Source: Bdellovibrionales bacterium (lineage in GTDB: Bacteria > Bdellovibrionota > Bdellovibrionia > Bdellovibrionales > UBA1609). Taken from it: DNA of 64,000 nucleotides. The DNA lies in the NCBI GenBank assembly GCA_965203095.1, contig OZ241877.1, positions 1,533,518 through 1,597,517 of the forward strand, written 5' to 3'. Both the position numbers and the translations under genes were made by a program. The first letter of the stretch is position 1, and each line of letters starts with the position of its first letter. The notes below the pieces were generated by a model that did not search any database, was not told the origin of the DNA, and was given only the letters and a program-made list of their open reading frames with translations. Below are positions 5,040 through 62,131 of the stretch, in pieces.

Positions 5040-7328
5040 ATGAATAAAAAAGATCTAACAGAACGAGATATTTGCACAAAATATATTACTCCTGCTATAG
5101 AACAGGCGGGTTGGGATAAAATTTTTCAAATAAGGGAAGAGCTTTACTTTACGGACGGAAGGATCCAAGTCCAGGGGCAAAAAAGCAAGAGGTTGAAGGG
5201 CAGGAAGGCAGACTATATTCTTTATAAAAATGACAAGCAAATTGCAGTTATTGAGGCTAAAGATAACAATCACTCTATATCTTCAGGTATACAACAGGCT
5301 TTAGAGTATGCGGATATTTTAGACATTCCCTTTGCTTTTTCCTCAAACGGCGATGGTTTTTTATTCCATGATAAAACATCCGGTAGAGAAACAGAGTTGC
5401 AACTACAAGACTTCCCCTCCCCCGGAAAACTTTGGTCCATTTATAAAAAACATAAAAACCTCAATGAGGAGCAGGAAAAAATCATTTTAGAGCCTTACCA
5501 CAGTGGGGCTGAGGTAAAAGAGCCAAGATATTACCAAAGAATAGCCATTAACAGGGTGGTTGAGGCTATTTCTAAAGGTCAAAACAGACTTCTTTTAGTT
5601 ATGGCCACGGGAACAGGAAAAACCTACACAGCTTTTCAAATCATGTGGAAACTTTGGAAAGCCAAAAAGAAAAAACGAATTTTATTTTTAGCAGACAGAA
5701 ACATTTTAGTTGACCAAAGCCGAAACAATGACTTTGCCCCTTTTAGACATGTAATGACAAAAATCAAAGGGAGAGTGGCGGATCCCGCTTACGAAGTTTT
5801 TTTATCTTTGTATCAGGCCATTACTGGGGAAGAAGAGAGTAAGAAAATTTTTAAAAAATTCTCTAAGGATTTTTTTGATTTGATTGTGATTGATGAATGC
5901 CACAGAGGAAGTGCTAAAGAGGACTCCTCTTGGCGGGAAATTTTAGAGTATTTTAACTCTGCAACTCAAATCGGTTTGACAGCTACTCCAAGAGAGACCA
6001 AATATACTTCCAACATTCGTTATTTTGGTGATCCTGTTTATACTTATTCTTTAAAGCAGGGTATAGAAGACGGCTTTTTAGCTCCCTACAAGGTAATAAG
6101 AATTGACATAGATAAAGACATTTATGGCTGGAGGCCGAAAAAGGGCCAGATGGACAAATACGGCCAGCTTATTGAAGACAGAGAATTTAAACAAAAAGAT
6201 ATGGACAAAAGCCTTGTTCTTGAAAAAAGAACAGAGCTTGTAGCTGAGAAAGTGACTGAGTTTTTAGAGCAAACAGACCTTTTTCAAAAAACAATTGTTT
6301 TTTGTGATGACATAGATCATGCAGAAAGAATGAGGTTGGAGCTTATCCATCAAAACTCTCAAGAAGTTAAAAAAAACAATAAATACATTATGAAAATAAC
6401 AGGTGATGATAAGATAGGAAAAGACGAGCTTGAAAATTTTATCAACCCCGAAAAAAGATATCCTGTAATCGTCACAAGCTCAAAACTGCTTACAACAGGA
6501 GTAGATGCAAGAACATGCAAGTTGATTGTTTTGGACAAAACCATCAACTCCATGTCTGAGTTTAAGCAAATTATAGGGAGAGGGACTCGTGTGGAAGAGG
6601 ATTTTGGTAAAATGTTTTTTACAATTATGGACTTCAAGGGAGCTACAAGGCTTTTTAATGATCCTGATTTTGACGGTGAGCCGGTGGAATTTTACGAGTC
6701 AAGACCAGGGAAGCCTATCGTTCCTTCAGGGAATGAAGATAAGCCAGCAGAAAACCCGGATGATTTTGAACCAAGAAAAAAATATTATGTTAAAAACCAG
6801 CCTGTTGAAATTATAGGTGAGGAGATAAGATATATCGGAGCTAAGGGCCAACTTATCACTGAGTCTTTTATAGATTACACCAAAAAAATTGTTTGCAAAA
6901 AATATCCCACTTTAAATAAATTCATTACTCATTGGAAGGAGTCAAACAATAAAAAAAAGCTTATAGATGAATTACAGGAAGAGGGTTTATTGACAATCCC
7001 TCTTAAAGAAAAGATCAATCAAAATATAGATGTTTTTGATTTAATAAATTATTTTGTTTTTGGGAAAGAGTTTTTAACAAAAGAGCAGAGGATAGAAAAA
7101 GCTAAAAACTCTTCTGCCTTCTCCCTTTTAGAGATGGATTGCCGGAAAATAATAAGTGAGCTTTTAAAAAAATATTCTCATAATGGAGTGGATAGCTTAG
7201 AGAATTTGGAAATTCTAAAAACTCCCTCTATGGGCAAATTTGGAACTGCTATGGAAATACTTAATAAATTTAACGGAACAGAAAAATACATAGAGACCAT
7301 AAGACAAATACTTAATGAGCTTTATTAA
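5040..7328 (+). CDS. hsdR: Type I restriction enzyme, R (endonuclease/translocase) subunit
   Basis: N-terminal PD-(D/E)xK signature (ADYILY...AVIEAKD). SF2 helicase motifs MATGTGKT and VIDECHRGS are present. hsdM and hsdS follow. Confidence 0.9.
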   Translation: MNKKDLTERDICTKYITPAIEQAGWDKIFQIREELYFTDGRIQVQGQKSKRLKGRKADYILYKNDKQIAVIEAKDNNHSISSGIQQALEYADILDIPFAFSSNGDGFLFHDKTSGRETELQLQDFPSPGKLWSIYKKHKNLNEEQEKIILEPYHSGAEVKEPRYYQRIAINRVVEAISKGQNRLLLVMATGTGKTYTAFQIMWKLWKAKKKKRILFLADRNILVDQSRNNDFAPFRHVMTKIKGRVADPAYEVFLSLYQAITGEEESKKIFKKFSKDFFDLIVIDECHRGSAKEDSSWREILEYFNSATQIGLTATPRETKYTSNIRYFGDPVYTYSLKQGIEDGFLAPYKVIRIDIDKDIYGWRPKKGQMDKYGQLIEDREFKQKDMDKSLVLEKRTELVAEKVTEFLEQTDLFQKTIVFCDDIDHAERMRLELIHQNSQEVKKNNKYIMKITGDDKIGKDELENFINPEKRYPVIVTSSKLLTTGVDARTCKLIVLDKTINSMSEFKQIIGRGTRVEEDFGKMFFTIMDFKGATRLFNDPDFDGEPVEFYESRPGKPIVPSGNEDKPAENPDDFEPRKKYYVKNQPVEIIGEEIRYIGAKGQLITESFIDYTKKIVCKKYPTLNKFITHWKESNNKKKLIDELQEEGLLTIPLKEKINQNIDVFDLINYFVFGKEFLTKEQRIEKAKNSSAFSLLEMDCRKIISELLKKYSHNGVDSLENLEILKTPSMGKFGTAMEILNKFNGTEKYIETIRQILNELY

Positions 7329-7353
7329 ACTAAGTAATAAACAGAGTAAAAAT

Positions 7354-8793
7354 ATGTCACTACAAAACCTTGTAAAATCCATACAAAACATTATGAGAAA
7401 AGATGCAGGAGTTAATGGGGACGCTCAAAGGATTGAGCAGTTGGGTTGGATTTTTTTCTTAAAGATATTTAGTGATAAAGAGATTGAAAGCCAAACTCTA
7501 AAAAAAAACTATCGTCCCTCTATTCCAAAAAAATACTTATGGCAAAGTTGGGCCAGCAATCCTGAAGGCCGGACAGGAGATGAGTTATTGAGTTTTATCA
7601 ATAATGATTTGTTTCCGCGGTTAAAAAACATGTCTTTGAATATTCAGACAAATCCAAAAGGGCTTATCATTAAGGAGGTTTTTCAGGATTCAAATAATTA
7701 TATGAAAAACGGCACACTTTTAAGGCAAGTCATTAACAAAGTGAATGGAATTGATTTTAATAAAAAAGAGGATTTGCATATTTTTGGGGATATTTACGAA
7801 AATTTTTTAAAGGACTTACAAGGTGCTGGGAATGCGGGAGAATTTTACACACCAAGACCAGTCACTCAATTTATGACAGAAATGATTAGCCCTCAGTTAG
7901 GGGAAAAAGTTTTAGATCCTGCTTGCGGGACAGGAGGTTTTTTATCCTGTGCCACCCAATATATCAGAAAACATTATGTGGAGACAGTGAGAGACAGAAA
8001 AACACTTCAAAAACAAATTCATGGAGTTGAGAAAAAGCCTCTTCCTCATCTTCTTTGTATGACCAATATGCTTTTGCATGAGATTGAAATTCCAACACAG
8101 ATTATCAGGGGGAATAAACTGGCAAAAAGGGTTACAGAATATAAAGTTAAGGACAGGGTGGATGTTATTTTAACAAATCCTCCTTTTGGCGGAAGTGAAG
8201 AGGAGGGGATTAAGGCTAATTTTCCAAAACCTTTTCAAACCAGCGAGACAGCGGATTTGTTTCTTGTATTGATTATAAATTTGCTAAAAGAAGGAGGCCG
8301 AGCGGGTGTTGTTTTGCCTAATGGTTGTTTATCTCAAGCAGGAGTCACGGCAAGAATTAGGCAAGAGCTTTTAGAGACTTGCAATCTTCATACAATAGTG
8401 AGACTGCCTCAGGGGGTTTTTAGCCCTTACTCTTCTATCCATACCAATCTTTTGTTTTTTAATAAAGGTCCTATCACAAAAAAAATATGGTATTATGAAT
8501 TGCCTTTGCCTCAAGGTTTAAAATCATACAACAAAGGGAATCCCATTCAGCATAAAGAGTTTGAGCCAGTTAAAGAGTGGTTTAAATACAGAAAAGCCAA
8601 CAAACATGCTTGGCAGGTTTCCATAGAGGAAATAAAGAAAAACGGTTATATTCTGGATATTAAAAACCCTATTATGGATAAAGAGGAATATGCCGACCCC
8701 GCAGTTCTTGAAAAAGAATATTTGCTTTTAAAAAAGAAAAACAAAAAACTGCTGAATGAAATAAAACAAAAAATAGAAAAAGCCTTACTTTGA
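7354..8793 (+). CDS. hsdM: Type I R-M N6-adenine DNA methyltransferase subunit
   Basis: AdoMet motif DPACGTGGFL and catalytic motif NPPFGG. The start is taken at ATG 7354 (MSLQNLVKSIQ...) rather than 7315, which overlaps hsdR. Confidence 0.9.
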   Translation: MSLQNLVKSIQNIMRKDAGVNGDAQRIEQLGWIFFLKIFSDKEIESQTLKKNYRPSIPKKYLWQSWASNPEGRTGDELLSFINNDLFPRLKNMSLNIQTNPKGLIIKEVFQDSNNYMKNGTLLRQVINKVNGIDFNKKEDLHIFGDIYENFLKDLQGAGNAGEFYTPRPVTQFMTEMISPQLGEKVLDPACGTGGFLSCATQYIRKHYVETVRDRKTLQKQIHGVEKKPLPHLLCMTNMLLHEIEIPTQIIRGNKLAKRVTEYKVKDRVDVILTNPPFGGSEEEGIKANFPKPFQTSETADLFLVLIINLLKEGGRAGVVLPNGCLSQAGVTARIRQELLETCNLHTIVRLPQGVFSPYSSIHTNLLFFNKGPITKKIWYYELPLPQGLKSYNKGNPIQHKEFEPVKEWFKYRKANKHAWQVSIEEIKKNGYILDIKNPIMDKEEYADPAVLEKEYLLLKKKNKKLLNEIKQKIEKALL

Positions 8794-8870
8794 ACTAAAA
8801 AACGGCTAAAAAACTTTATTTTTTCCATTTTTAAGACAAAAAATCCTGTTTTTTTCTATTTTTACAAAAA

Positions 8871-8900
8871 AACCCAATGGACTTTGTTGGGTTTTTATAT
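8871..8900 (+). terminator. Candidate intrinsic terminator between hsdM and hsdS
   Basis: AACCCAA-(9 nt)-TTGGGTT hairpin followed by a T-rich tract (TTTTATATT). Confidence 0.4.
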
Positions 8901-9022
8901 TAAAATCATCTTATGGATAAAATCAGCATTAAAAAACTGCAACAATATGCAAAAAAACAGCATATTAACATTACTCCTTATATTTTGGCACTTACAACAT
9001 GAATAAACAGGCTTGAAAAATA

Positions 9023-16855: not shown

Positions 16856-17603
16856 GAAGAATATTGAATCCAACCAAAAATATACTCCCCCTGAGTATAA
16901 AAAAAAGGCTTTTCACTGCCCACATTGTGAAGTGTATGCGAATCAGAATTGGAAAAATATTGTTTCAGAGGACCGAGAGTATGTGTATATGAATATGGAT
17001 GATTGGTTATTGAGAACAGCCAGAAGATACAATCTAAATACAATGAATGAGTCGATTTTACAAAAAATTATAAAGGTATATAGTTCGCTTTTTATTGGAG
17101 GAATTGAACTTGCCCTTTGTGCTCGCTGTAAAAAATATTCTATATGGGTAGATGGGCAAATGGTTTATCCCAATATGCTCACAGCTCCTTTACCTATTGA
17201 GGAGATGCCGGAATCTGTAAAAAAGCTTTATAATGAGGCCAGAGAAATTTCTGGCAAGTCACCAAGGGGAGCTTGTGCCTTGTTAAGGCTGGCAGTTCAG
17301 CAACTTGTTAAAGAGTTAGGCGAAGATGAAAATAATTTAAGTAAAGCCATTGGCAATTTAGTCCAAAAAGGTTTACCAAAGAGAATACAAGAAGCTTTGG
17401 ATTCTGTTAGAGTTATTGGCAACAATGCTGTTCATCCCGGCAAGATAAATATAGAAGATAAACCAGAGATAACAGATACTCTTTTTATGCTTATCAATTT
17501 TATTTCAGAAAAAATGTTTAAAGATGAGCAAAAAGTTGAGAAAATTTTTAGCTCTTTGCCTAAAAATTCTAAAAAAGCAACAGAACAAAGAGATCAAAAA
17601 TGA
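16836..17603 (+). CDS. Zn-ribbon + DUF4145-like domain protein
   Basis: RBS AAGGAGGAAAATAAAA is followed directly by the ATG. The cysteine pairs CPHC...CARC form the ribbon. The C-terminus AREISGKSPRGACALLRLAVQQL...LDSVRVIGNNAVHPG resembles DUF4145, a family often embedded in Type I R-M loci. Confidence 0.65.
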   Translation: MSDQKNKKNIESNQKYTPPEYKKKAFHCPHCEVYANQNWKNIVSEDREYVYMNMDDWLLRTARRYNLNTMNESILQKIIKVYSSLFIGGIELALCARCKKYSIWVDGQMVYPNMLTAPLPIEEMPESVKKLYNEAREISGKSPRGACALLRLAVQQLVKELGEDENNLSKAIGNLVQKGLPKRIQEALDSVRVIGNNAVHPGKINIEDKPEITDTLFMLINFISEKMFKDEQKVEKIFSSLPKNSKKATEQRDQK

Positions 17604-17734
17604 ATCCAAAAAATCAGTTATTTAAAAAACAAAAAATCACTATTGAAGGTTTTTTTAAGACTATGCTAAATAAACTAATGACCGGAAAAATCCGAGTCCA
17701 TAAACTGGGTATGAATACAAAACCTATGGAATAA
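17600..17734 (+). pseudogene. Relic of an hsdS 3' end (44-codon ORF)
   Basis: It translates to ...ITIEGFFKTMLNKLMTGKIRVHKLGMNTKPME*. L(L/M)TGKIRV is a characteristic conserved-region motif of Type I S subunits. Confidence 0.5.
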
Positions 17735-17740
17735 TAAAAA

Positions 17741-19564
17741 ATGGAACAAGCTATACTTAAAGAATTATATAATATTTTAGATCAATACAAGAAGCCGAGT
17801 TTCTTAATAGAAAGAAAAATCCATAGATGCATAGAAAGCTTTATCAAAGAAAAATTTAAAGACAGTAAATTATCGGCAAATTCTCCATTAAACTATGAAA
17901 CAAGAGCTTTTGCTTTTGGGGAAAGGGATAATTGCCCGGAGGAATGGGGAAATGTATCATATAGCCCGCTCATAGGGAATATAGATCCTATTACAAAAAA
18001 ATATCAAACATCTTATCCAGGCATAAGTCAAATTACTCCTGAAGTATTAAATTATTGGGAAGAACGATCTTCTGAAGTAAGCAATCCTATTTTACAATGT
18101 CGTTATGCCGGGCTTGTATGGGATTTTTCGCCAAAAATAAGAGGTAAAAAAGCAGATATATTTATAGCTTATAAGTTTATTGATTCCATAATCAAAATGG
18201 CTGAGCTTGGAGGAGATAGGTTTTTAAAATATAAACTGGAAAGGGCTTTAAGGCTTGCTGTTTCCATCAACAACAGGGACAGAATTTCATCTCTAAAAGA
18301 CACTATTATAAACTATGAGGACACTCACTCTGAAGATAATAAGTCAGGAACATGGGGTTATTCTTTTGACTTATTGATCGGTGATAAAGATTTATATAAA
18401 AAAATTGAATTAAAAAAAGAGCAAGAAAATAAAATCATAAAAAATCTTGAAAAAAGGCTGACATTGCTTTCTGACAAAGATTCGGATGTTTTTAGCCCGT
18501 ATAATGTTGAACATATTATTTCAAAACTGGTTCCTTATTATAATAATAGAAATGATAAGAAAAATATGAAAAGGGTTTTATTGATATATCGGGATTCTTT
18601 TTTATCTATTCTTGAAAAAGGAATTGGAATACCAGGAAGCGTTTGGCTGGAAAAAGTCAGAAAAATTTTATTTCAATATGGTTTATCTCAAGAGGCAAAA
18701 GATATAGAAGAAAATCTAAGAAAAGCCCAAAAAGAAGATTTAAAACTTCTTAAAAAACATAAAATTCCTATTAACATCCCAGGAGAAAAAGTTGATGATT
18801 ATATTAAAGGGCTTGATGAGCAAACCCTCTTTGAAGCATTGAATACAATAGCTATATCTTTTATCCCTGACAAAGATCAAAGTAAAGAGATAGTTCATGA
18901 AATTGCTCAGAAACATCCTCTCCAATTTATAATATCATCAAGCAATATTATGGATCATACTGGGAGAAAAGTTGCTGAAGTTGGACCTTTACAAGAGGAT
19001 TTAGACGGTCGCATTATTTATCAAATGAAACAATCACTTCTATTAACTTGTTATATGATTGAATTGGGCTTAAATCACCTTGAGAAGACAAAACTTCTTA
19101 ATGCGGACACACTTGCAAAGCATTTATTTGAGTCGCCATTTTTTTTAAAAGAGCAGTATCAAATAATAAAAGAAGGTTTGATTGCTTATTTCAATAAGAA
19201 TTATATTGCAAGTTGCTCTGTGCTGATTCCTCAAGTTGAATCCGTCATTAGAGAAATTATGGTTGTTGCTGGAGGGGTGATATATCAACCCTCAAGATCA
19301 TCAAATGAAAAAGGATTAAATTTAAGACCTTTAGGTTCTTTGTTGAGAGATGAGGTATTTATTAACATTTTTGAAGAATTTAATAAAAATATTCCTATTT
19401 ATTTTCAGATTCTTTTAATTGATCCAATAGGTTTTAATTTTAGAAACAATATTTGTCATGGTCATTTTCCTGCTGATCATTTTAATAAAACCGTTGCAAA
19501 TTATATTATTCACATATTATTGATTTTGTCCATATTCAAAAAAAGCGAAGAGAAAAAAGCTTAA
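17741..19564 (+). CDS. Large helical protein (607 aa) with a C-terminal Rx4H (HEPN-like, DUF4209-like) motif
   Basis: The C-terminus is LLIDPIGFNFRNNICHGHF. The size and motif resemble DUF4209 proteins; this is not verified by a search. Confidence 0.5.
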   Translation: MEQAILKELYNILDQYKKPSFLIERKIHRCIESFIKEKFKDSKLSANSPLNYETRAFAFGERDNCPEEWGNVSYSPLIGNIDPITKKYQTSYPGISQITPEVLNYWEERSSEVSNPILQCRYAGLVWDFSPKIRGKKADIFIAYKFIDSIIKMAELGGDRFLKYKLERALRLAVSINNRDRISSLKDTIINYEDTHSEDNKSGTWGYSFDLLIGDKDLYKKIELKKEQENKIIKNLEKRLTLLSDKDSDVFSPYNVEHIISKLVPYYNNRNDKKNMKRVLLIYRDSFLSILEKGIGIPGSVWLEKVRKILFQYGLSQEAKDIEENLRKAQKEDLKLLKKHKIPINIPGEKVDDYIKGLDEQTLFEALNTIAISFIPDKDQSKEIVHEIAQKHPLQFIISSSNIMDHTGRKVAEVGPLQEDLDGRIIYQMKQSLLLTCYMIELGLNHLEKTKLLNADTLAKHLFESPFFLKEQYQIIKEGLIAYFNKNYIASCSVLIPQVESVIREIMVVAGGVIYQPSRSSNEKGLNLRPLGSLLRDEVFINIFEEFNKNIPIYFQILLIDPIGFNFRNNICHGHFPADHFNKTVANYIIHILLILSIFKKSEEKKA

Positions 19565-19637
19565 GGATAATTTTTGTTTGTGAATTAATAAGTTTGTTTG
19601 GGTTTTTATCTTTTTGTTAAAGAAGGAGGTTTAGGGA

Positions 19638-20489
19638 ATGAATGATTTTAGGAAAAGTGATTTTGATAAAATTATGGAATTATATAAAAGCTGGCGAGAT
19701 TGTGAACCTTTGCCGGAGGAAAACCATAGGGCTTTATGGCAATGGATCCGTATGCGGTTTAATCATCTGTCCAATAAGTTTGAGGGCAATACTCTCACTT
19801 ATAGCGAAACTCAACTGCTTTTAATTCATGGGCGGGCTTCCGGTGATCATGAACTGAGGGAATATGAAGAGATGAAAGCTCATGACCTGGCCTTTGAGTA
19901 TATTCGCAAATTGGCTAAAGAGGCCAGGCTTATTGGTGAAGGGGATATTAGAGACCTCAATAAAATTTGCCTTAAAGAAACTTTTTATAAAGTGACTAAA
20001 ACTCCAACTGGTGAGCTGAGTAGAAAAAAAATCATTCCGGGAAAATATAAAACTCAGCCCAACCATGTTTTAACAAAAACAGGGCAGATTTTTCAGTTTG
20101 CCTTGCCGGAGGAAACTCCTGCTCTTATGGCAGATTTGTCTATAAGGATTCAAAACTGGTTAAAGCAAAGCACAGAGGACAAACATAAAAATCTTGTCTC
20201 TTTTTTAGCAGATCTTCATAAAAGGTTTATCCTTATTCATCCTTTTGATGATGGCAATGGGCGGGTGGTTCGTCTTCTTCTGAATTATATCCTTATCCGC
20301 TTAGATTTTTTGCCTATGGTTTTAGACAATCGGGAGGAATATATTAAGTCCATTCAGTTTGCAGATACTGGCGATATAAGTAAGCTTGAAAAATTATTTG
20401 CTGACAATATAAGCCTTATGCTTGAAAGAGGCATTTATGCGAAAAACAACAAGCTGGATTTGTCTACATTCCCATTTTCAAAGGATTGA
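19638..20489 (+). CDS. Fic family protein (AMPylase-type)
   Basis: The canonical Fic motif HPFDDGNGRVVRLL is present. RBS AAGGAGG lies upstream. Confidence 0.85.
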   Translation: MNDFRKSDFDKIMELYKSWRDCEPLPEENHRALWQWIRMRFNHLSNKFEGNTLTYSETQLLLIHGRASGDHELREYEEMKAHDLAFEYIRKLAKEARLIGEGDIRDLNKICLKETFYKVTKTPTGELSRKKIIPGKYKTQPNHVLTKTGQIFQFALPEETPALMADLSIRIQNWLKQSTEDKHKNLVSFLADLHKRFILIHPFDDGNGRVVRLLLNYILIRLDFLPMVLDNREEYIKSIQFADTGDISKLEKLFADNISLMLERGIYAKNNKLDLSTFPFSKD

Positions 20490-26545: not shown

Positions 26546-27625
26546 ATGTTCAGTATTTCGCTGACAGAATCATTTTTCAATTTCCCGCCGAACCTTGCCA
26601 GAAATCCCTCCAGCTTTCTGGCTCCCGTGAAAACGGAAATCCACCGTCGTTCCCGCGAAAGCGGGAATCCACCGTCGTTCCCGCGAAAGCGGGAATCCAC
26701 CGTCGTTCCCGCGAAAACGGGAATCCACCGTCGTTCCTGCAAAAGCGGGAATCCACCGTCGTTCCTGCAAAAGCGGGAATCCATAAATTACTTCTGGACT
26801 GGGGGGTATTTATCCTATTCTGGTTGGGGTTTTCTTGGAGGGATTACCTTTGTCCGGGAGGATCAGGTGGATCGAGGGGTTTTAAGCCATGAGTTGGCTC
26901 ATCTTTTAGGCCAGCGGAAGGATTTTTATGATCAAGAGGGAAAGCAACAGCAAAAGTGCCGTAGGTTTTCCGGGGATGAGTTGATCCCTTGTGCAGGTTA
27001 TAAAATTCCAAGGGCTTTAGATTCCTGGGTTGAAAATGGGCAAAGGCATTGGAATTTTGTCCAAGATAGATACAGTATTATGGACAACAAAAATGAACCT
27101 GATATTGAAGAGAATATTTTAGAAGAATTATGGATAGATCGGGAGAGCCATCAGAGGGTATTTTCACCTTACGCCAAAGTCAGTTCTGTTTTTGATCATC
27201 TTCAAAACAAAATCCATTTATCTGAAAAGAAGATTAAACCAAAGAAATTATTAGTTTCTGGTTTTTACGATAAGAAGAGGAATCGGTTTTTATCTCCTCA
27301 GTTAAGGGTTTTAGAGACGGACGGGGTCACTCCTTCTTTATCTAAGGACTGGGATGTAAAGGAAGTGCCTTTAGTTTCATTTCATGTAAAAAACAGGGAG
27401 GGATCTCCTTTGCAGACGATTCGTCGTCCTGCTTTTGATGTGGAGTCTCGATTTCTTTATGAGGGGGGAAAGAGTAGAGAATGTGGTTCCAAGTCTTTTG
27501 GTTTATCGATGGTTTCAGCTATTTTTAATTTATCGGAGTTGAGGACAAGTCCAAAGGATATTAAACTTTCTGTTTTTGGCCCGGAGGGGGAGGAAATTTT
27601 TTCCTCCTTATTACCTGAGGATTGA
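26546..27625 (+). CDS. HExxH zinc-metalloprotease-like protein. The N-terminal 80 or so codons are encoded by the repeat array, so the start is uncertain and the gene may be disrupted.
   Basis: SHELAHLLG (HExxH) lies about 30 codons after the array. ATG 26546 reads in-frame through all six units. Confidence 0.45.
   Translation: MFSISLTESFFNFPPNLARNPSSFLAPVKTEIHRRSRESGNPPSFPRKRESTVVPAKTGIHRRSCKSGNPPSFLQKRESINYFWTGGYLSYSGWGFLGGITFVREDQVDRGVLSHELAHLLGQRKDFYDQEGKQQQKCRRFSGDELIPCAGYKIPRALDSWVENGQRHWNFVQDRYSIMDNKNEPDIEENILEELWIDRESHQRVFSPYAKVSSVFDHLQNKIHLSEKKIKPKKLLVSGFYDKKRNRFLSPQLRVLETDGVTPSLSKDWDVKEVPLVSFHVKNREGSPLQTIRRPAFDVESRFLYEGGKSRECGSKSFGLSMVSAIFNLSELRTSPKDIKLSVFGPEGEEIFSSLLPED
26621..26784 (+). 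repeat. Spacer-less tandem array of 6 x 28-bp R1-derived units
   Basis: The unit is GTTCCCGCGAAAGCGGGAATCCACCGTC. Unit starts are 26621, 26649, 26677, 26705, 26733 and 26761, and the last unit is truncated. Confidence 0.9.
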
Positions 27626-36659: not shown

Positions 36660-36740
36660 AGTTTTTTGCCCAAAGTCCGTCCCATTTCGGTATTACAATA
36701 CCTTGGACCATCACCGGACAAACTTTGGGCAAAAGCCATT
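36660..36740 (+). repeat. R2-family hairpin, variant copy D
   Basis: TTTTGCCCAAAGTCCG ... CATTTCGGTATTACAATACCTTGGACCATCAC ... CGGACAAACTTTGGGCAAAA. Confidence 0.65.
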
Positions 36741-46271: not shown

Positions 46272-46350
46272 TTCGTGGCCCGTGAAAAAGCCTTGTCCAA
46301 ATCCGGAGTATCTTTGGGCAATGTTCGCTCTCATTCAGGACGGAATATCT
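46270..46350 (+). repeat. R2-family partial copy E
   Basis: The left TIR-like sequence ATTCGTGGCCCGTGAAAAAGCC is followed by TTGTCCAAA...TCTTTGGGCAA and a truncated core CATTCAGGACGGAATA. Confidence 0.5.
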
Positions 46351-49326: not shown

Positions 49327-49998
49327 TTGAGAAAAAAGATTTTAAAAATAAGAACTGGTATTATGGGTGGAAGTTTTAGCCCCTTCCACATGGCCCATTT
49401 AAACAGTCTTCTCACTGTGAGAAAACAACTCAGCCTGCAAAACATTGTTTTGGTTCCTTCCTTCCGGACCCCTCTTAAAGATGAGAAAGAGGAAATTAGC
49501 CCTCTTCACCGTGAAAGTATGCTCAAGAGGCTTTTAAGGGAATATCCCTTTATGTCAGTCGATAACCAGGAAATTTTGAGAGCGGGCCTCAGCTACACCT
49601 ATAAAACCATATCTCAACTTTTTAAAGAAAGACCTAAAGAAGAGCTATTTTTTATTATGGGTTTGGATCCATTTTATATTTTTGACCGGTGGAAAAATTT
49701 TAAAGAAATTTTACAAAAAACTCATTTGGTTGTCACCAGCCGTCCTGGGTTTTCCTTTCCTCAAAAAGCAAAAGATTTTCCTAATGGCCTGATCCCTCTC
49801 ATTAAAAAAAGATGGCAGAACCGATGGACTTTAAAAGAGACTACAAAAAAAATTTATTTTTGCCATTTAAAAGATATGGATATATCTTCGTCTGACATCA
49901 AACAACAACTGAAAGAGGGGAGAAGTATGAGCCACTTTTTGCCTCAAGCAGTGGATGAATACATTAAGGAAAATCAGATTTTGTCCGGTCCCTCGTGA
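49327..49998 (+). CDS. nadD: Nicotinate-nucleotide adenylyltransferase
   Basis: GGSFSPFHMAHL (the (T/H)xGH motif) and a C-terminal ISSSDIK (ISST-like). Confidence 0.8.
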   Translation: MRKKILKIRTGIMGGSFSPFHMAHLNSLLTVRKQLSLQNIVLVPSFRTPLKDEKEEISPLHRESMLKRLLREYPFMSVDNQEILRAGLSYTYKTISQLFKERPKEELFFIMGLDPFYIFDRWKNFKEILQKTHLVVTSRPGFSFPQKAKDFPNGLIPLIKKRWQNRWTLKETTKKIYFCHLKDMDISSSDIKQQLKEGRSMSHFLPQAVDEYIKENQILSGPS

Positions 49999-50693
49999 AA
50001 AAGTCTACATTTAATAGATCACATAACAACTTGTTAGGGACAAAACAGCTTGAACTCTCACCGTCAGTAAAAGCAGTGGCTTTAAAAGCCAAAAAAGCCC
50101 TCAGTGCTTTAGGAAGAGAAAATGCTTATATCCATGTCATGCCTTTTTCAACTAAAACAGAAGGGGAGAGAAAAAGGCTGAGGCAAAGGCTTGTCCGAGA
50201 AATAAAAAATTCTTTGGATTTTAAAAACATTAAAAAGAAGTTTGACTGGGACCTGTTTGACTGGGGTCCGCTTTTAAAACCCGGCTCTAAAGCTCAAAGC
50301 CTTTTTGCCACCATATCCATATCCCATTGCGAAGGCTTTGGGGCCTTTGTGTTTGTTTTTGAAAAAAATCTCTCTATAGGTTGGGATCTGGAAAAAAAGA
50401 ATCGAATTACAGAAAAAATAGTGGGACGTATTTCTTCAGAAAAGGAACTTAAATCTTCTCCTTCCCCCCCTCTACTTTGGACAGCAAAAGAGGCGGTTTT
50501 TAAATGTTTTTCAAATAGTCAGAGCTTTCTCCTTTTAAGCGATGGATTGATCTCTCATTGGATAAAGGATAAGGAGTTTTATTTTTTTAAAGGTCGTTCT
50601 AAAAAAACAGACAAAGAGGCTCTCGGAGTCGCCTGCTTTATTAATAACTTGGTTTTAGCCTATGCGGAAAGTTCTCCTTTGTTTAAATCTTAA
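49995..50693 (+). CDS. 4'-phosphopantetheinyl transferase (Sfp-type)
   Basis: ISISHCEG, GWDLE and WTAKEAVFK fit the PPTase motifs. Confidence 0.6.
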   Translation: MKKSTFNRSHNNLLGTKQLELSPSVKAVALKAKKALSALGRENAYIHVMPFSTKTEGERKRLRQRLVREIKNSLDFKNIKKKFDWDLFDWGPLLKPGSKAQSLFATISISHCEGFGAFVFVFEKNLSIGWDLEKKNRITEKIVGRISSEKELKSSPSPPLLWTAKEAVFKCFSNSQSFLLLSDGLISHWIKDKEFYFFKGRSKKTDKEALGVACFINNLVLAYAESSPLFKS

Positions 50694-53146: not shown

Positions 53147-53176
53147 AATGATTTTAATTACTGGTTTTGTTTGAAT

Positions 53177-53229
53177 TTTCCGGTCAAAACAGAGTCCAGA
53201 AGGCAGGAATTTTCAAAAAAATCAGTATA
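53177..53229 (-). repeat. R3 repeat copy 3 (inverted), immediately upstream of ung
   Basis: Its reverse complement reads TATACTGATTTTTTTGAAAATTCCTGCCTTCTGGACTCTGTTTTGACCGGAAA. Confidence 0.75.
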
Positions 53230-53340
53230 AGTAGATTATTATAAGTAAAAGCTTTTGGAGCAAGTTTTTTTTTGGATTTTTTCTTATGTTATTTGTGAAA
53301 GGGCCGTTTTTTAAAGCTGTGAGCTTTTAAGTGACTAATT

Positions 53341-53497
53341 TAGTTGTCCGTGAAAAACCTTTGTTTTTTAACTTTTTTTGTCCAAAGGACCATTCCATTT
53401 CGGGACGGCAATACCTTGGACCCTCATGGAATGGCCTTTGGACAAAAGCAGGAAAAAGAGGACGAGGCTTTTTGTCCAGCTTTTTCACGGACGACTA
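53341..53497 (+). mobile_element. R2 element copy A: TIR-bounded, MITE-like, with a 21-bp hairpin and a 29-nt loop
   Basis: TIRs are TAGTTGTCCGTGAAAAA / TTTTTCACGGACGACTA. Stem arms are at 53376-53397 and 53427-53447, and the loop is at 53398-53426. Confidence 0.7.
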
Positions 53498-53522
53498 TTT
53501 AGATACCCATGAACCTAATATT

Positions 53523-54128
53523 TCAGCCTATCAGTCTCTTTTTTAAAGAGACAAAAGGGCTATTTTTAACATAAAACCTTAAAAACCAAAAAGAGGAATC
53601 TTTATGTTGAGGGAGGCCCACCCGGCAATCTGTTTCTACATTTCTCTCTTTTTCACCTTTAGAAATATAAAGTTCTCCTTTTTGAAACAGGATTTTTGCG
53701 TTTAAAGATTTTGTGATATTGAAGGCTTGGCAAAGCTTTCCCGGTCCGGAACAGAGCTTTTCGATCTTTTCTTGTTGACGGTTGTTTTGCATTTTTAAAA
53801 GCCCCTTTAGAGGTTGAACCGCACGAATCAAAACGGCTTCTGGTTCTTCTGCCTTAGCGGTGACCACATTAAAGCAGTGATACATTCCATAAGTGAAATA
53901 AATGTAGCTGTAGCCACCGGGAAGATACATGGTTTTGGTTCGCTTTGTTCGTAAGCCTTTAAAGCTGTGGCAGGAGGGATCTTTTATTCCCAGGTAAGCC
54001 TCTGTCTCTACAATTCGTCCAACAAGTTTTTGCCCTCCATGCAGATTTCTCAGCAGGAAACAGCCCAAAAGATCTTCCGCCACCCGGACAGTGTCCCTCA
54101 TAAAAAAACTTTGTTTTAAGGGGTGCAT
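53523..54128 (-). CDS. DNA-3-methyladenine glycosylase (Mpg/AAG family)
   Basis: VAEDLLGCFL...GRIVETEAYLG..DPSCHSF...RT..M...GG.SYIYF.YGMYHCFNVV. Confidence 0.85.
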   Translation of the reverse strand: MHPLKQSFFMRDTVRVAEDLLGCFLLRNLHGGQKLVGRIVETEAYLGIKDPSCHSFKGLRTKRTKTMYLPGGYSYIYFTYGMYHCFNVVTAKAEEPEAVLIRAVQPLKGLLKMQNNRQQEKIEKLCSGPGKLCQAFNITKSLNAKILFQKGELYISKGEKERNVETDCRVGLPQHKDSSFWFLRFYVKNSPFVSLKKRLIG

Positions 54129-54274
54129 ATTTTTAATAAAATTTTGCCTTTTTCTCTTTTAAAAAACAAGTCAAAAGGAAAGAGAACATTGGTATTTTTC
54201 CAATAAAAGCTTGACATATTCTAAATAAAAAGGACTCATAATAAAAAATTGTGAGTTTTCAGATAGTTTTGTAT

Positions 54275-54411
54275 TAGTGGCCTGTGAAAAACCTCTGTCC
54301 TTTGTCGCATAAGCAAAAGCCAGCGGTGAGGGTCCAAGGTATTGCCGTCCTGAACAAGCTGGACTTTTACTTATGCGATCTATTAAATGTAGACTTTTTC
54401 ACTGACGACTA
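54275..54411 (-). mobile_element. R2 element copy C (core inverted relative to copy A)
   Basis: TIRs are TAGTGGCCTGTGAAAAA / TTTTTCACTGACGACTA. The core TGAGGGTCCAAGGTATTGCCGTCC is at 54327-54350. The stem is CGCATAAG...CCAGC / GCTGG...CTTATGCG. Confidence 0.7.
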
Positions 54412-54520
54412 TTTATAATGTGTGGCGGGGCTTTTAGGATGTGTTAAAATGAATTGCTCTTCCCTTGTTTTTTGAAAATTTCAAATGGAGATATTTTTGT
54501 AAAATTGGATTTTGCCGTTT

Positions 54521-59689: not shown

Positions 59690-59832
59690 TTCCCGTAGAC
59701 TTTGCTAAAAAGCATTATTTTTTGGTTTCTTTGCCCAAAGACCACAGCATTTCGGGACGGCAATACCTTGGACCCTCATGCTGTGGCTTTGGGCAAAAGA
59801 AGTTTAGAGGCTGTTTTTTCACAAACAAGTAT
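59690..59832 (+). mobile_element. R2 element copy B
   Basis: The hairpin is at 59729-59798. The loop (59750-59778) is identical to that of copy A. The right end TTTTTTCACAAACAAGTA is TIR-like, and the left end is degenerate. Confidence 0.65.
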
Positions 59833-59910
59833 TTAATTAAAAAACTGTTCAATCTTTAAACAGTTTTTTTAAAAAAACAGGTTTTGTTTAAAGGTTCAGC
59901 AAGTTAAAAC

Positions 59911-59939
59911 TTGACTTTTAGCTTGTTTTTAGTTATAAA
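59911..59939 (+). promoter_or_regulatory. Candidate sigma70 promoter of paralogue 1
   Basis: TTGACT, a 17-nt spacer, then TATAAA. The sequence is duplicated at 60988-61016. Confidence 0.5.
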
Positions 59940-59974
59940 TGTTTCATATTGAGGCATAAAAATAAGGAGGATTT

Positions 59975-60934
59975 ATGTTTTTAAAGCTCTTAACCTTGAT
60001 GATGATGGTTTTTACTTTAAATGCTTATGCAAACCCAGCCTGTCGGGAATGGGAGGAAGAATATCATTATTCTCCAGATTATCTCCCGGATGTTATGGGT
60101 TATGCCCGTTGCCTTATCTTTAACGGGGATAAAGAAAAGGCTTTGGCTTTTATCCAACAGCTTGACAGACAAGGTTATATTCCTGGGGTTTTTTATATGG
60201 CCAAATACATTCAGCACCAATGGAATTATGGAACAAGGGATTATGATCGTTTAGATGAAATTATAATGGCTTATCTCCGGGTAATCTCTTTAATTGAAGG
60301 GGCTTATGACTATCCCCAATTTAATGGCCAAAATTTTGATGGTGCTCTGCTCTGGTATGAGCAAACAGACAGTATGGAGCTGAACTCCCATTATCAGGTT
60401 CCTATGACTTACTTTCATAAATTTACACAAGGAGCTATCGGCATTTATAATTTATATTTAATGCAATCTCCTAATTATAGTGGAGAGAGGGATTTAAACA
60501 CTTACCCCACTTACAATTTATATACTGAGGACAGTTTGGAAAAAACCATTGAGCATGCCAACCGTTGCCTTTCCCTACCGATGAAAGATTATTTTATAGA
60601 GGAGGTCTATAGGTTTTATCAATCGGCTTGTCAGGTATTAAAAGATTCTGCCCAAGCCCTTCTGCCATTAGAGGGGGAAAGGCTGTCCCTTTTAAACAAA
60701 AGATCTTGCAGGAGTGCTTTGCCGAATTGTCAAGAGTATAATGACTTGGCTGATAGGGAAATGATTCCAATTATTGATAAAGTTTTTGATGAGTTAGATG
60801 TAATATTTGATGAGTTAAATCTATTTTTAGAAAAGAAGGGTGCTTGCTTAGAGGCAGAACTTGAAAGAAGACAAAGGCTATTTGATGAGAAGGGAATAAT
60901 CCTAACTGATGAATTTACTTGTGATATATCATAG
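59975..60934 (+). CDS. Secreted helical-repeat (Sel1/TPR-like?) protein, tandem paralogue 1
   Basis: RBS AAGGAGG. The signal peptide is MFLKLLTLMMMVFTLNAYA. The gene is near-identical to 61052-62023 over about the first 250 codons. Confidence 0.7.
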   Translation: MFLKLLTLMMMVFTLNAYANPACREWEEEYHYSPDYLPDVMGYARCLIFNGDKEKALAFIQQLDRQGYIPGVFYMAKYIQHQWNYGTRDYDRLDEIIMAYLRVISLIEGAYDYPQFNGQNFDGALLWYEQTDSMELNSHYQVPMTYFHKFTQGAIGIYNLYLMQSPNYSGERDLNTYPTYNLYTEDSLEKTIEHANRCLSLPMKDYFIEEVYRFYQSACQVLKDSAQALLPLEGERLSLLNKRSCRSALPNCQEYNDLADREMIPIIDKVFDELDVIFDELNLFLEKKGACLEAELERRQRLFDEKGIILTDEFTCDIS

Positions 60935-60987
60935 AAATTCGTTTTTTTAAAAAATAAGTTTTGTTTAAAGGTTCAGTAGGCTAAAAC

Positions 60988-61016
60988 TTGACTTTTAGCT
61001 TGTTTTTAGTTATAAA
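60988..61016 (+). promoter_or_regulatory. Candidate sigma70 promoter of paralogue 2
   Basis: TTGACT, a 17-nt spacer, then TATAAA. Confidence 0.5.
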
Positions 61017-61051
61017 TGTTTCATATTGAGGCATAAAAATAAGGAGGATTT

Positions 61052-62023
61052 ATGTTTTTAAAGCTCTTAACCTTGATGATGATGGTTTTTACTTTAAATG
61101 CTTATGCAAACCCAGCCTGTCGGGAATGGGAGGAAGAATATCATTATTCTCCAGATTATCTCCCGGATGTTATGGGTTATGCCCGTTGCCTTATCTTTAA
61201 CGGGGATAAAGAAAAGGCTTTGGCTTTTATCCAACAGCTTGACAGACAAGGTTATATTCCTGGGGTTTTTTATATGGCCAAATACATTCATAACGAATGG
61301 AATTATGGAACAAGGGATTATGATCGTTTAGATGAAATTATAATGGCTTATCTCCGGGTAATATCTTTAATTGAAGGGACTTTTGACTACCCCCGATTTA
61401 ATGGCCAAAATTTTGATGGTGCTCTGCTCTGGTATGAGCAAACAGACAGTATGGAGCTGAACTCCCATTATCAGGTTCCTATGACTTACTTTCATAAATT
61501 TACACAAGGAGCTATCGGCATTTATAATTTATATTTAATGCAATCTCCTAATTATAGTGGAGAGAGGGATTTAAACACTTACCCCACTTACAATTTATAT
61601 ACTGAGGACAGTTTGGAAAAAACCATTGAGCATGCCAACCGTTGCCTTTCCCTACCGATGAAAGATTATTTTATAGAGGAAGCCTACCGGTTTTATCAAT
61701 CAGCCTGTCAGGTGTTAAAAGATTCCGCCCAAGCCCTTTTGCCATTAGAGGGGGAAAGGTTATCTCTTTTGAACAAAAGATCTTGCAGGGATACTTTGCC
61801 GAATTGTCAAGAGTATGATGAATTGGTTAAAGAGAAAATGTTTCCGATTATTGGAGAAACTCATGATGAGTTGGATATAATATTTGACGATCTGAATCGC
61901 TTTTTTGAAGAGAAGGATGCCCGTGATGCAGAGATAAGCAGAAAATTTCAGGAAGAACTGGACGCTGTCACTTCAGATGAGGAACACCTTGAACTTTTAC
62001 GAAAATATAACCTGATTGATTAA
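61052..62023 (+). CDS. Secreted helical-repeat protein, tandem paralogue 2 (divergent C-terminus)
   Basis: The 5' region and first 250 or so codons match paralogue 1. The last 70-75 codons are diverged. Confidence 0.7.
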   Translation: MFLKLLTLMMMVFTLNAYANPACREWEEEYHYSPDYLPDVMGYARCLIFNGDKEKALAFIQQLDRQGYIPGVFYMAKYIHNEWNYGTRDYDRLDEIIMAYLRVISLIEGTFDYPRFNGQNFDGALLWYEQTDSMELNSHYQVPMTYFHKFTQGAIGIYNLYLMQSPNYSGERDLNTYPTYNLYTEDSLEKTIEHANRCLSLPMKDYFIEEAYRFYQSACQVLKDSAQALLPLEGERLSLLNKRSCRDTLPNCQEYDELVKEKMFPIIGETHDELDIIFDDLNRFFEEKDARDAEISRKFQEELDAVTSDEEHLELLRKYNLID

Positions 62024-62063
62024 ATTATTTTGATATTGAGAAACTTGGCTTTCCTGCCTCAAC

Positions 62064-62131
62064 TTTTTTTAAAAAATTAAGTTTTGTTTAAAGGTTCAGT
62101 AGGCTAAAACTTGACTTTTAGCCTGTTTTTA
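62064..62131 (+). repeat. Third, truncated copy of the paralogue upstream region (orphan promoter fragment)
   Basis: TTTTTTTAAAAAATTAAGTTTTGTTTAAAGGTTCAGTAGGCTAAAACTTGACTTTTAGCCTGTTTTTA matches 60942-61009 and breaks off at the -10 position. Confidence 0.75.

Follow-up and report, generated by a model that had tools for sequence, protein, structure and literature searches.

R2, a mosaic hairpin repeat with a conserved loop on variable paired stems in a small-genome Bdellovibrionales-like bacterium

In a 64-kb stretch of DNA (hereafter the window) from a small-genome (1.78 Mb) Bdellovibrionales-like bacterium, we found a small, non-coding, multi-copy repeat, R2, whose intact hairpins present a conserved loop on stems that differ in sequence and remain paired. 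R2 is real and is not a described family; its broad class is that of the small intergenic palindromic repeats (MITE, NIME, REP, ERIC). We observed its architecture, its conservation pattern, its modularity, its confinement to one lineage and its positions at rearrangement junctions. Our preferred reading, held tentatively and with slightly less than even confidence, is that R2 may be a mosaic repeat, non-autonomous and specific to this lineage, with a hairpin module that is read as a folded single strand by way of its loop. Four intact copies underlie this unusual and testable pattern.

The window is chromosomal DNA of about 38% GC and contains housekeeping genes for IF3, Mur ligase, RF, BamA, EF-G, Obg, L21 and PGK. 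The nearest relatives of the protein encoded by its methylpurine-DNA glycosylase gene (53523-54128, minus strand; below, the glycosylase gene) show 49-70% identity and come from uncultured Bdellovibrionales, Bdellovibrionaceae or Oligoflexia genomes of 1.5-2.5 Mb. R2 was analysed in this window and in ~20-kb samples from relatives (designated L004 to L096). Other repeats were also noted in the window. The L21 gene (47508-47912) contains a 42-nt tandem repeat in seven copies, which gives a repetitive C-terminal extension, and L21 is 251 aa long in the window versus 188 aa in L084. Two paralogous ~320-aa genes with no family match lie at 59865-62131. A 67-nt segment with a near-consensus promoter (TTGACT-17-TATAAA) occurs three times, upstream of each of these paralogues and at 62065, ~190 nt upstream of pgk; the first two of these repeats extend to 300 nt with 98% identity.

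We identified eight copies of R2 in the 64 kb, of which A, B, C and D have intact hairpins and E, F, G and H are broken or chimeric (Table 1). The element is 137-157 bp long and has no ORF of its own. The first-pass annotation had reported a dispersed family of at least five to seven copies; the dispersed family is real, and copy H had been overlooked. As that annotation had suggested, we built a covariance model from the copies, using the four intact hairpins. Scanned over the window with filters off, the model gave four matches at 76-92 bits, which were A, B, C and D only, and the next match was copy G at 14.8 bits. R2 also presents a hazard for gene callers, as repeat sequence makes up all or part of ORF 53331-53546 and of the opening 24 codons of ORF 49995-50693. 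The left end of G opens with TAG, confirming the annotated overlap with the stop codon of an 81-aa ORF (14492-14737).

Table 1. Coordinates of the R2 copies, their parts and the inverted segment between copies A and C (window positions)
Feature	Position	Strand	Description
Copy A, complete	53341-53497	+	covariance model 90.9 bits
Copy A ends	left 53341-53357, right 53481-53497		
Copy A hairpin	53376-53447		13 bp, bulged A, 8 bp; loop 53398-53426
Copy B	59729-59831	+	covariance model 91.9 bits
Copy B hairpin	59729-59798		loop 59750-59778, identical to A loop
Copy B right end, decayed	59815-59831		3 mismatches to search pattern, 4/17 to consensus
Copy C, complete	54275-54411	-	covariance model 75.6 bits
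Copy C hairpin	54306-54377		type-2 stems (CGCATAAG...); bulge and loop (54327-54355) on minus strand
Copy D	36663-36734	+	type-1 hairpin without end repeats; covariance model 84.7 bits
Copy D loop	36685-36713		23/29 match
Copy E	46273-46345	+	left end with 2 mismatches, decayed loop 18/29, no hairpin
Copy F	12620-12701	-	type-2 half, decayed loop 21/29, fused to dRS3-like hairpin (12670-12701)
Copy G	14735-14870	-	end repeats both sides; type-1 arm, decayed loop 20/29, dRS3-like hairpin
Copy H	49980-50066	+	type-2, stem partly deleted, loop 18/29; end CGTGAAAAAG
Inverted glycosylase segment	53498-54274	-	exactly between A and C; inverted versus seven relatives

We assessed the conservation of the loop among the copies. 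The 24-nt loop sequence GGACGGCAATACCTTGGACCCTCA occurs exactly three times, at 53403-53426 and 59755-59778 on the plus strand and at 54327-54350 on the minus strand, and exact matches in 100 shuffles numbered zero. These exact matches bear out the earlier report that the loop is identical in A and B and agrees with C at 24/24 positions in reverse complement. A and B have 33 identical bases in common (53396-53428 and 59748-59780). Over 29 loop positions, A and B match at 29/29 and C at 27/29. The loop had also been described as invariant, which does not hold for the whole family: D retains 23/29 and the broken copies E, F, G and H only 18-21/29 (62-72% identity). In B, the 29-nt loop and its adjoining bases are unchanged, versus a right end that is off the consensus at 4/17 positions; by rough arithmetic, the chance of 29 unchanged bases at 24% divergence is ~3e-4. 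Between A and C, the stems and linkers are unalignable and the loop matches at 24/24. Because the loops of the broken copies have drifted, the loop appears to be held constant only in copies with an intact hairpin stem to present it. Alternatively, the intact copies are younger products of several source lines, all with the same loop. This differential conservation of the loop and its surroundings is a stronger argument than pair counts. The loop of D carries a five-base block change that yields a perfect GGTATTACAATACC palindrome, which is a signature of template switching in DNA.

Two types of stem support the loop. Type 1 (A, B and D) has the outer stem TTTTGYCCAAAG, and type 2 (C; F and H retain remnants) has CGCATAAGYAAAAG; the two have little in common beyond AAARG-N-CCA / TGG-CYTTT around the bulge. 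Both types nonetheless have a common geometry: the outer stem is 12-14 bp long, the inner stems are 8, 8, 5 and 4 bp, and the loop is 29-33 nt. The bulge lies on the 5' arm of the strand carrying GGACGGCAATACC and is an A in copies A and B and a T in C, and D has a 2x2 internal loop at this position. An A/C mismatch that had been proposed in the stem of copy A is actually a single bulged A, and the C pairs with a G. Compared with shuffles, the folding z values were -8.0 for A, -4.7 for B, -4.9 for C and -4.4 for D.

In the model alignment, which covers four sequences and two stem types, 89.9% of cells are paired and 11/20 pairs change on both sides, a result that was reached by 0/500 shuffles; pairing drops to 26-53% when the partners are slid. 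The first-pass annotation had counted at least four compensatory double changes between A and B, and we confirmed four, one in the outer stem (T-A to C-G) and three in the inner stem (TTC/GAA to CAG/CTG). One whole G-C pair has also been deleted between these copies. Because any two palindromes in register score as compensatory, the double-change count alone is no proof of RNA selection; it shows arm complementarity. Template switching between the palindrome arms is a DNA-level alternative for the compensatory changes. Of the original argument, that compensatory change points to selection on a folded RNA or single-stranded DNA, the complementarity of the arms stands, and the count by itself does not carry the step to selection. 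The frozen loop and the complementary arms do indicate, as had been claimed, that simple decay of one MITE is insufficient.

We then considered the ends of the element. The end repeat TAGTNGTCCGTGAAAAA, searched with up to three mismatches, gave nine matches in the window versus 0.73 expected. The ends are ~17 nt long and inverted, with the consensus TAATTAGTCGYCCGTGAAAAAG and TA at start and finish. Pairs of ends bound A, C and G; E has one end only, at 46273, D has none, and B, D and F are the copies in which ends are missing or have decayed, the left end of B being unrecognisable. The description of R2 as bounded by terminal inverted repeats is correct for three of the eight copies (A, C and G) and not for the remaining ones. 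A, C and G are flanked by TA...TA, but this TA is part of the inverted repeat, and the intergenic DNA of relatives does not align; the end TA may simply belong to the inverted repeat and not be a target duplication. When the ends of C were compared with those of A, left-to-left identity was 20/24 versus 16/24 for the opposite pairing, which weakly suggests that both copies have their ends in the same orientation. The C hairpin, bulge included, appears to be reversed within this frame. The core of C had been called inverted: its loop and bulge are indeed on the minus strand, and the part of the claim that depends on the frame is weakly supported by this difference in identity.

Relatives carry the end motif alone or with other cargo (L007 at 4343, 9108 and 10603; L085 at 9943 and 11830; L096 at 17269). 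Since D has the hairpin without ends and these relatives have ends without the R2 hairpin, the end repeat and the hairpin behave as separable modules. The end motif is also older and more widespread than the R2 hairpin, because it is found in three relatives while the R2 loop and hairpin are absent there. We asked whether the end repeat 5' of the glycosylase gene is orthologous between the window and L085, and the alignment gave no support. L085 also contains a 2.1-kb insertion sequence (11856-13945) with a 586-aa DDE_Tnp_1 transposase and perfect 20-nt ends GTCCCGACTTTGACACTTAA, inserted immediately beside a solo R2-type end repeat; this transposase was ruled out as the source of the R2 ends by its own 20-nt ends.

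R2 copies mark rearrangement junctions, namely the inversion of the glycosylase gene and a break between nadD and rsfS. The gene order in seven relatives is uracil-DNA glycosylase (minus), glycosylase gene (plus) and tolB-like gene (plus), and in the window (53147-54511) it is uracil-DNA glycosylase (minus), A, glycosylase gene (minus), C and tolB-like gene (plus). A and C flank the only gene whose orientation differs from the seven relatives, and the inversion is lineage-specific. Crossover inside the loops of A and C was rejected as its cause, since this would leave non-complementary arms, yet both hairpins are well paired. The inversion fits recombination, or a transposase acting, at the facing ends, and it also fits A, the gene and C having moved together as a composite. 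Copy H lies at a gene-fusion breakpoint: nadD of the window ends at residue 223, equivalent to residue 222 of the 347-residue NadD-RsfS fusion of L084, and the end repeat of H contains the TGA that stops nadD together with the GTG of the ORF that follows (window 49327-50693). The ORF after nadD is only weakly similar to phosphopantetheinyl transferase. R2 supplies stop and start codons to its neighbours, which matters for annotating such genomes from metagenomes.

Copies F and G combine R2 with another repeat. In both, a dRS3-like hairpin replaces the 3' arm, with a common junction GAACAAGTTTTTMTGGATT, and A, B, C and D have no dRS3-like units. The GC-rich hairpin ATTCCCGCGAAAGCGGGAAT at 9555 fits the Neisseria dRS3 consensus ATTCCCNNNNNNNNGGGAAT. 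Units of this kind were found in the window at 1491, 9555, 12670-12701, 14819-14855, 14449, 15978 and 16784, and a 28-nt tandem array of the hairpin, the only array, lies at 26595-26811, just 3' of bamA, with no R2 unit inside.

Similar dRS3-like units occur in the relatives L008 and L010, and L010 has a long, NIME-array-like series of GGAATGAC-type short repeats between dRS3-like hairpins (18100-18530). A low-GC (26-34%) defence-type island was observed at window 5040-20489. Its genes include type I restriction-modification genes (hsdR, hsdM and an hsdS with an internal duplication), Schlafen/AlbA_2, a HepT-like/nucleotidyltransferase pair, DUF4145, DUF4209 and Fic, and its intergenic spaces contain several dRS3-like hairpins as well as copies F and G. 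The C-terminal part of the Schlafen/AlbA_2 gene contains three 33-nt tandem repeats (14167-14265; peptide KFRSIFGVNA).

We searched for R2 outside the window. The loop pattern had no match in 185,579 reference genomes or in viral contigs, and its only three matches in JGI metagenomes were chance ones, all in unrelated high-GC contigs; the end pattern gave only eight chance coding matches in viral contigs. Over ~430 kb (428 kb) from clade relatives, the covariance model found no match apart from four weak sub-threshold ones of 13-20 bits, which lie in a hairpin-rich L096 spacer holding the X/Z hairpins described below. BLAST of copy A against plasmids and phages returned nothing meaningful. For the whole window, Rfam gave 0 families at the gathering threshold and only chance miRNA-like hairpins at E up to 10, the best sub-threshold match being a miRNA hairpin model at 23 bits versus a threshold of 59. 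Literature searches on the end sequence and on Bdellovibrionota MITEs found nothing relevant.

Pfam and NCBIfam scans detected no transposase domain among the window's 56 longest non-nested ORFs, so the earlier statement that R2 has no transposase holds for the window; by Pfam, the window ORFs contained no Y1-transposase-like domain and no integrase domain. A role as an intrinsic terminator was ruled out, as the Ts lie 5' of the hairpin and the As 3'. Promoter-like sites were not enriched at R2; a single good one (TAGACT-18-TATAAT) spans the right end of C and flanking DNA. Copy orientation showed no significant bias, with counts of 4 to 2 when compared with transcription and 5 to 3 when compared with the GC-skew strand.

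Relatives carry a second, undescribed hairpin family, X/Z, at L085 9540-9921 and 19753-19885, L096 12310-12630, L004 2901-2980 and L010 18599-18683. X/Z is multi-copy and intergenic, with a structured apex of ~60 nt, GAGTTCGGNTTTGA-[covarying helix]-GCAAAACGCATGTCYGAR, that is conserved across four genomes, on basal stems of 24-31 bp that are unrelated between genomes yet paired. Beyond its training set, the X/Z apex model scored 69 bits in L004 and 59 bits in L010; it found nothing in the window, and X/Z had no Rfam match. One X/Z copy adjoins an R2-type end repeat (L085 9943-9959). X/Z and R2 belong to the same clade and both have a conserved apex with a variable paired stem, but the sequence and size of the apex differ. 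The comparison gave no support for the R2 loop and the X/Z apex being homologous: only TTCGG and GGCAA are common to them, and neither covariance model detects the other family. From these sequence comparisons, a conserved apex on a free but paired stem is a recurring theme of the clade that extends beyond the four R2 sequences.

R2 consists of a frame of ~17-nt inverted ends, short linkers and a ~72-nt hairpin module. Its behaviour as DNA is that of other small repeats: it has multiplied, decays, fuses with other repeats and sits at rearrangement junctions. In the preferred reading, the ~21-bp bulged stem would be free to change in sequence while pairing holds, and the fixed 29-nt loop would most simply be contacted by a sequence-specific partner, taken here to be the unseen machinery that copies or moves the hairpin module. 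Where a copy lies between co-directional genes, the same hairpin would form in their transcripts too. Here we infer the mobility of R2, the identity of the partner and whether single-stranded DNA or RNA is the polymer that folds.

Because B keeps a perfect hairpin and loop with decayed ends and D has a hairpin with no ends, conservation operates either in place or only on the hairpin, and a host-level RNA role accounts for this no less well than mobility does. It is possible, although unlikely, that R2 is a host-selected structured RNA, acting in the transcripts of its neighbours to signal processing, stability or translation or to provide a protein-binding platform, with the UGAGGGUCCAAGGUAUUGCCGUCC strand as the functional one and the DNA repeat as its vehicle. 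A and D lie between co-directional genes and have UGAGGGUCCAAGG... on the sense strand in both cases, and B and C sit in divergent spacers that are compatible with this strand being sense if they lie in 5' UTRs. Four non-Watson-Crick positions of D are G-U pairs on the minus strand and mismatches on the other (-36.0 versus -27.8 kcal/mol); this UGAGGGUCCAAGGUAUUGCCGUCC strand is sense to the genes flanking D, and only there is the inner stem fully paired. However, the sole wobble pair of C lies on the opposite strand from this G-U-favoured reading of D, and orientation over all copies is only 4 to 2 relative to transcription. Together, the strand evidence gives weak hints of a strand-specific fold and a slight lean to RNA for the fold in place. 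A 29-nt loop would make extrusion from duplex DNA unlikely, and the X/Z family of the relatives, with its covarying inner helix and a G-U pair in 4/5 sequences, is also in keeping with an RNA. Set against this are neighbours that are functionally unrelated (uracil-DNA glycosylase, dapF, the tolB-like gene and one unknown gene), the fact that half of the R2 copies are wrecks, a hairpin without a terminator tail, the lack of enrichment for promoter-like sites and the absence of R2 from every relative examined.

HUH-type sites have a conserved loop, a covarying stem and strand asymmetry. By analogy, the conserved loop, covarying bulged stem and strand asymmetry of R2 could reflect a single-stranded DNA recognition hairpin for an HUH-type enzyme (as at REP/RAYT and IS200/IS605 ends) or a rolling-circle origin, and the existence of the D hairpin without end repeats would agree with this. 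We consider it improbable, as R2 has no GTAG-type motif, the window ORFs have no Y1-transposase-like domain and the loop is far larger than those of known REP or IS608 hairpins; moreover, by GC skew the lagging-strand template would be the plus strand, yet the wobbles of D speak for the minus strand. Little probability is likewise given to an origin without selection on the fold, either with the intact copies as recent products of two or three sources, template switching or arm-to-arm conversion, intrinsic to DNA palindromes, maintaining the complementarity of their arms, or with the loop as a duplex-DNA protein site between inverted repeats, like the IHF-binding BIME/RIP of E. coli. The palindrome created by the block change in D would suit the former, as would a hairpin repeat of L085 that also has an arm-to-arm double change and the correlation of loop decay with overall decay, which simple age predicts. 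For the latter, the invariant core of the four copies contains CAA-N4-TTG, by our own reading a partial match to the IHF consensus. Yet arm homogenisation cannot hold loops identical between otherwise diverged copies: A and B differ at 0/33 central bases while the right end of B is off at 4/17, the loops of A and C agree at 24/24 on unalignable stems, and the bulge is on the same arm in A, B and C.

Taken more broadly, it is distinctly unlikely, but worth stating, that R2 and X/Z form an undescribed class of elements of small-genome Bdellovibrionota, in which long bulged hairpins would propagate or function as single strands, the apex being the site of a dedicated protein and the stem being free to covary. 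If this class reading is true, the loop and not the termini would be conserved, the reverse of classical MITE/REP logic. If the loop is a recognition site on a variable stem, R2 would be a small natural model for the reading of a hairpin apex by a protein, could reveal how small repeats spread when their termini are not conserved, and would contribute a repeat class from small-genome predators or symbionts of a little-known lineage. Were R2 merely a decaying repeat, it would still be an unannotated family that gene callers mistranslate.

We compared R2 with known systems. With bacterial MITEs, such as the Neisseria Correia elements (CREE), R2 shares a length of ~140-160 bp, a lack of coding capacity, inverted ends with TA at both start and finish, and many intergenic copies; in both, the whole element folds as a long hairpin, truncated variants exist, and a stop codon or a portion of a promoter can come from one of the ends. 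MITEs have conserved ends and a drifting interior, whereas the interior loop is the best conserved part of R2; unlike MITEs, R2 has two unrelated stem types, a hairpin that also occurs without ends and no cognate transposase in the window. NIMEs consist of RS units flanked by dRS3 ATTCCCNNNNNNNNGGGAAT and are reported as Neisseria-specific (PMC1797815). R2 resembles them as a mosaic, modular intergenic repeat tied to recombination or rearrangement, with copies F and G fused to dRS3-like units, but R2 is mostly single and not in long dRS3-RS arrays, has another inverted repeat as its flank and belongs to an unrelated organism.

R2 was also tested against integron attC sites, which have conserved R''/R' cores (RYYYAAC ... 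GTTRRRY) at the base of the stem, a variable centre and an integrase nearby; in R2 the centre is conserved and the stem bases differ by type (TTTTGYCC versus CGCATAAG), and the test was negative. REP and REPIN sequences, which RAYT transposases mobilise, are, like R2, short intergenic hairpins in which double changes keep pairing, which are thought to fold as single strands and which persist in place. In REPINs the arms (REP units) are conserved and the spacer varies, whereas R2 shows the reverse, with arms that have no GTAG motif and no RAYT in the window. The ERIC/IRU elements of enterobacteria are imperfect palindromes of ~127 bp in transcribed intergenic regions, with a conservation ascribed to RNA structure, and are similar to R2 in these respects; the whole palindrome of ERIC is conserved across genera, whereas in R2 only the loop is, within one lineage. 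R2 is set apart from all four by its conserved loop, as MITE, NIME, REP and ERIC conserve their ends or arms.
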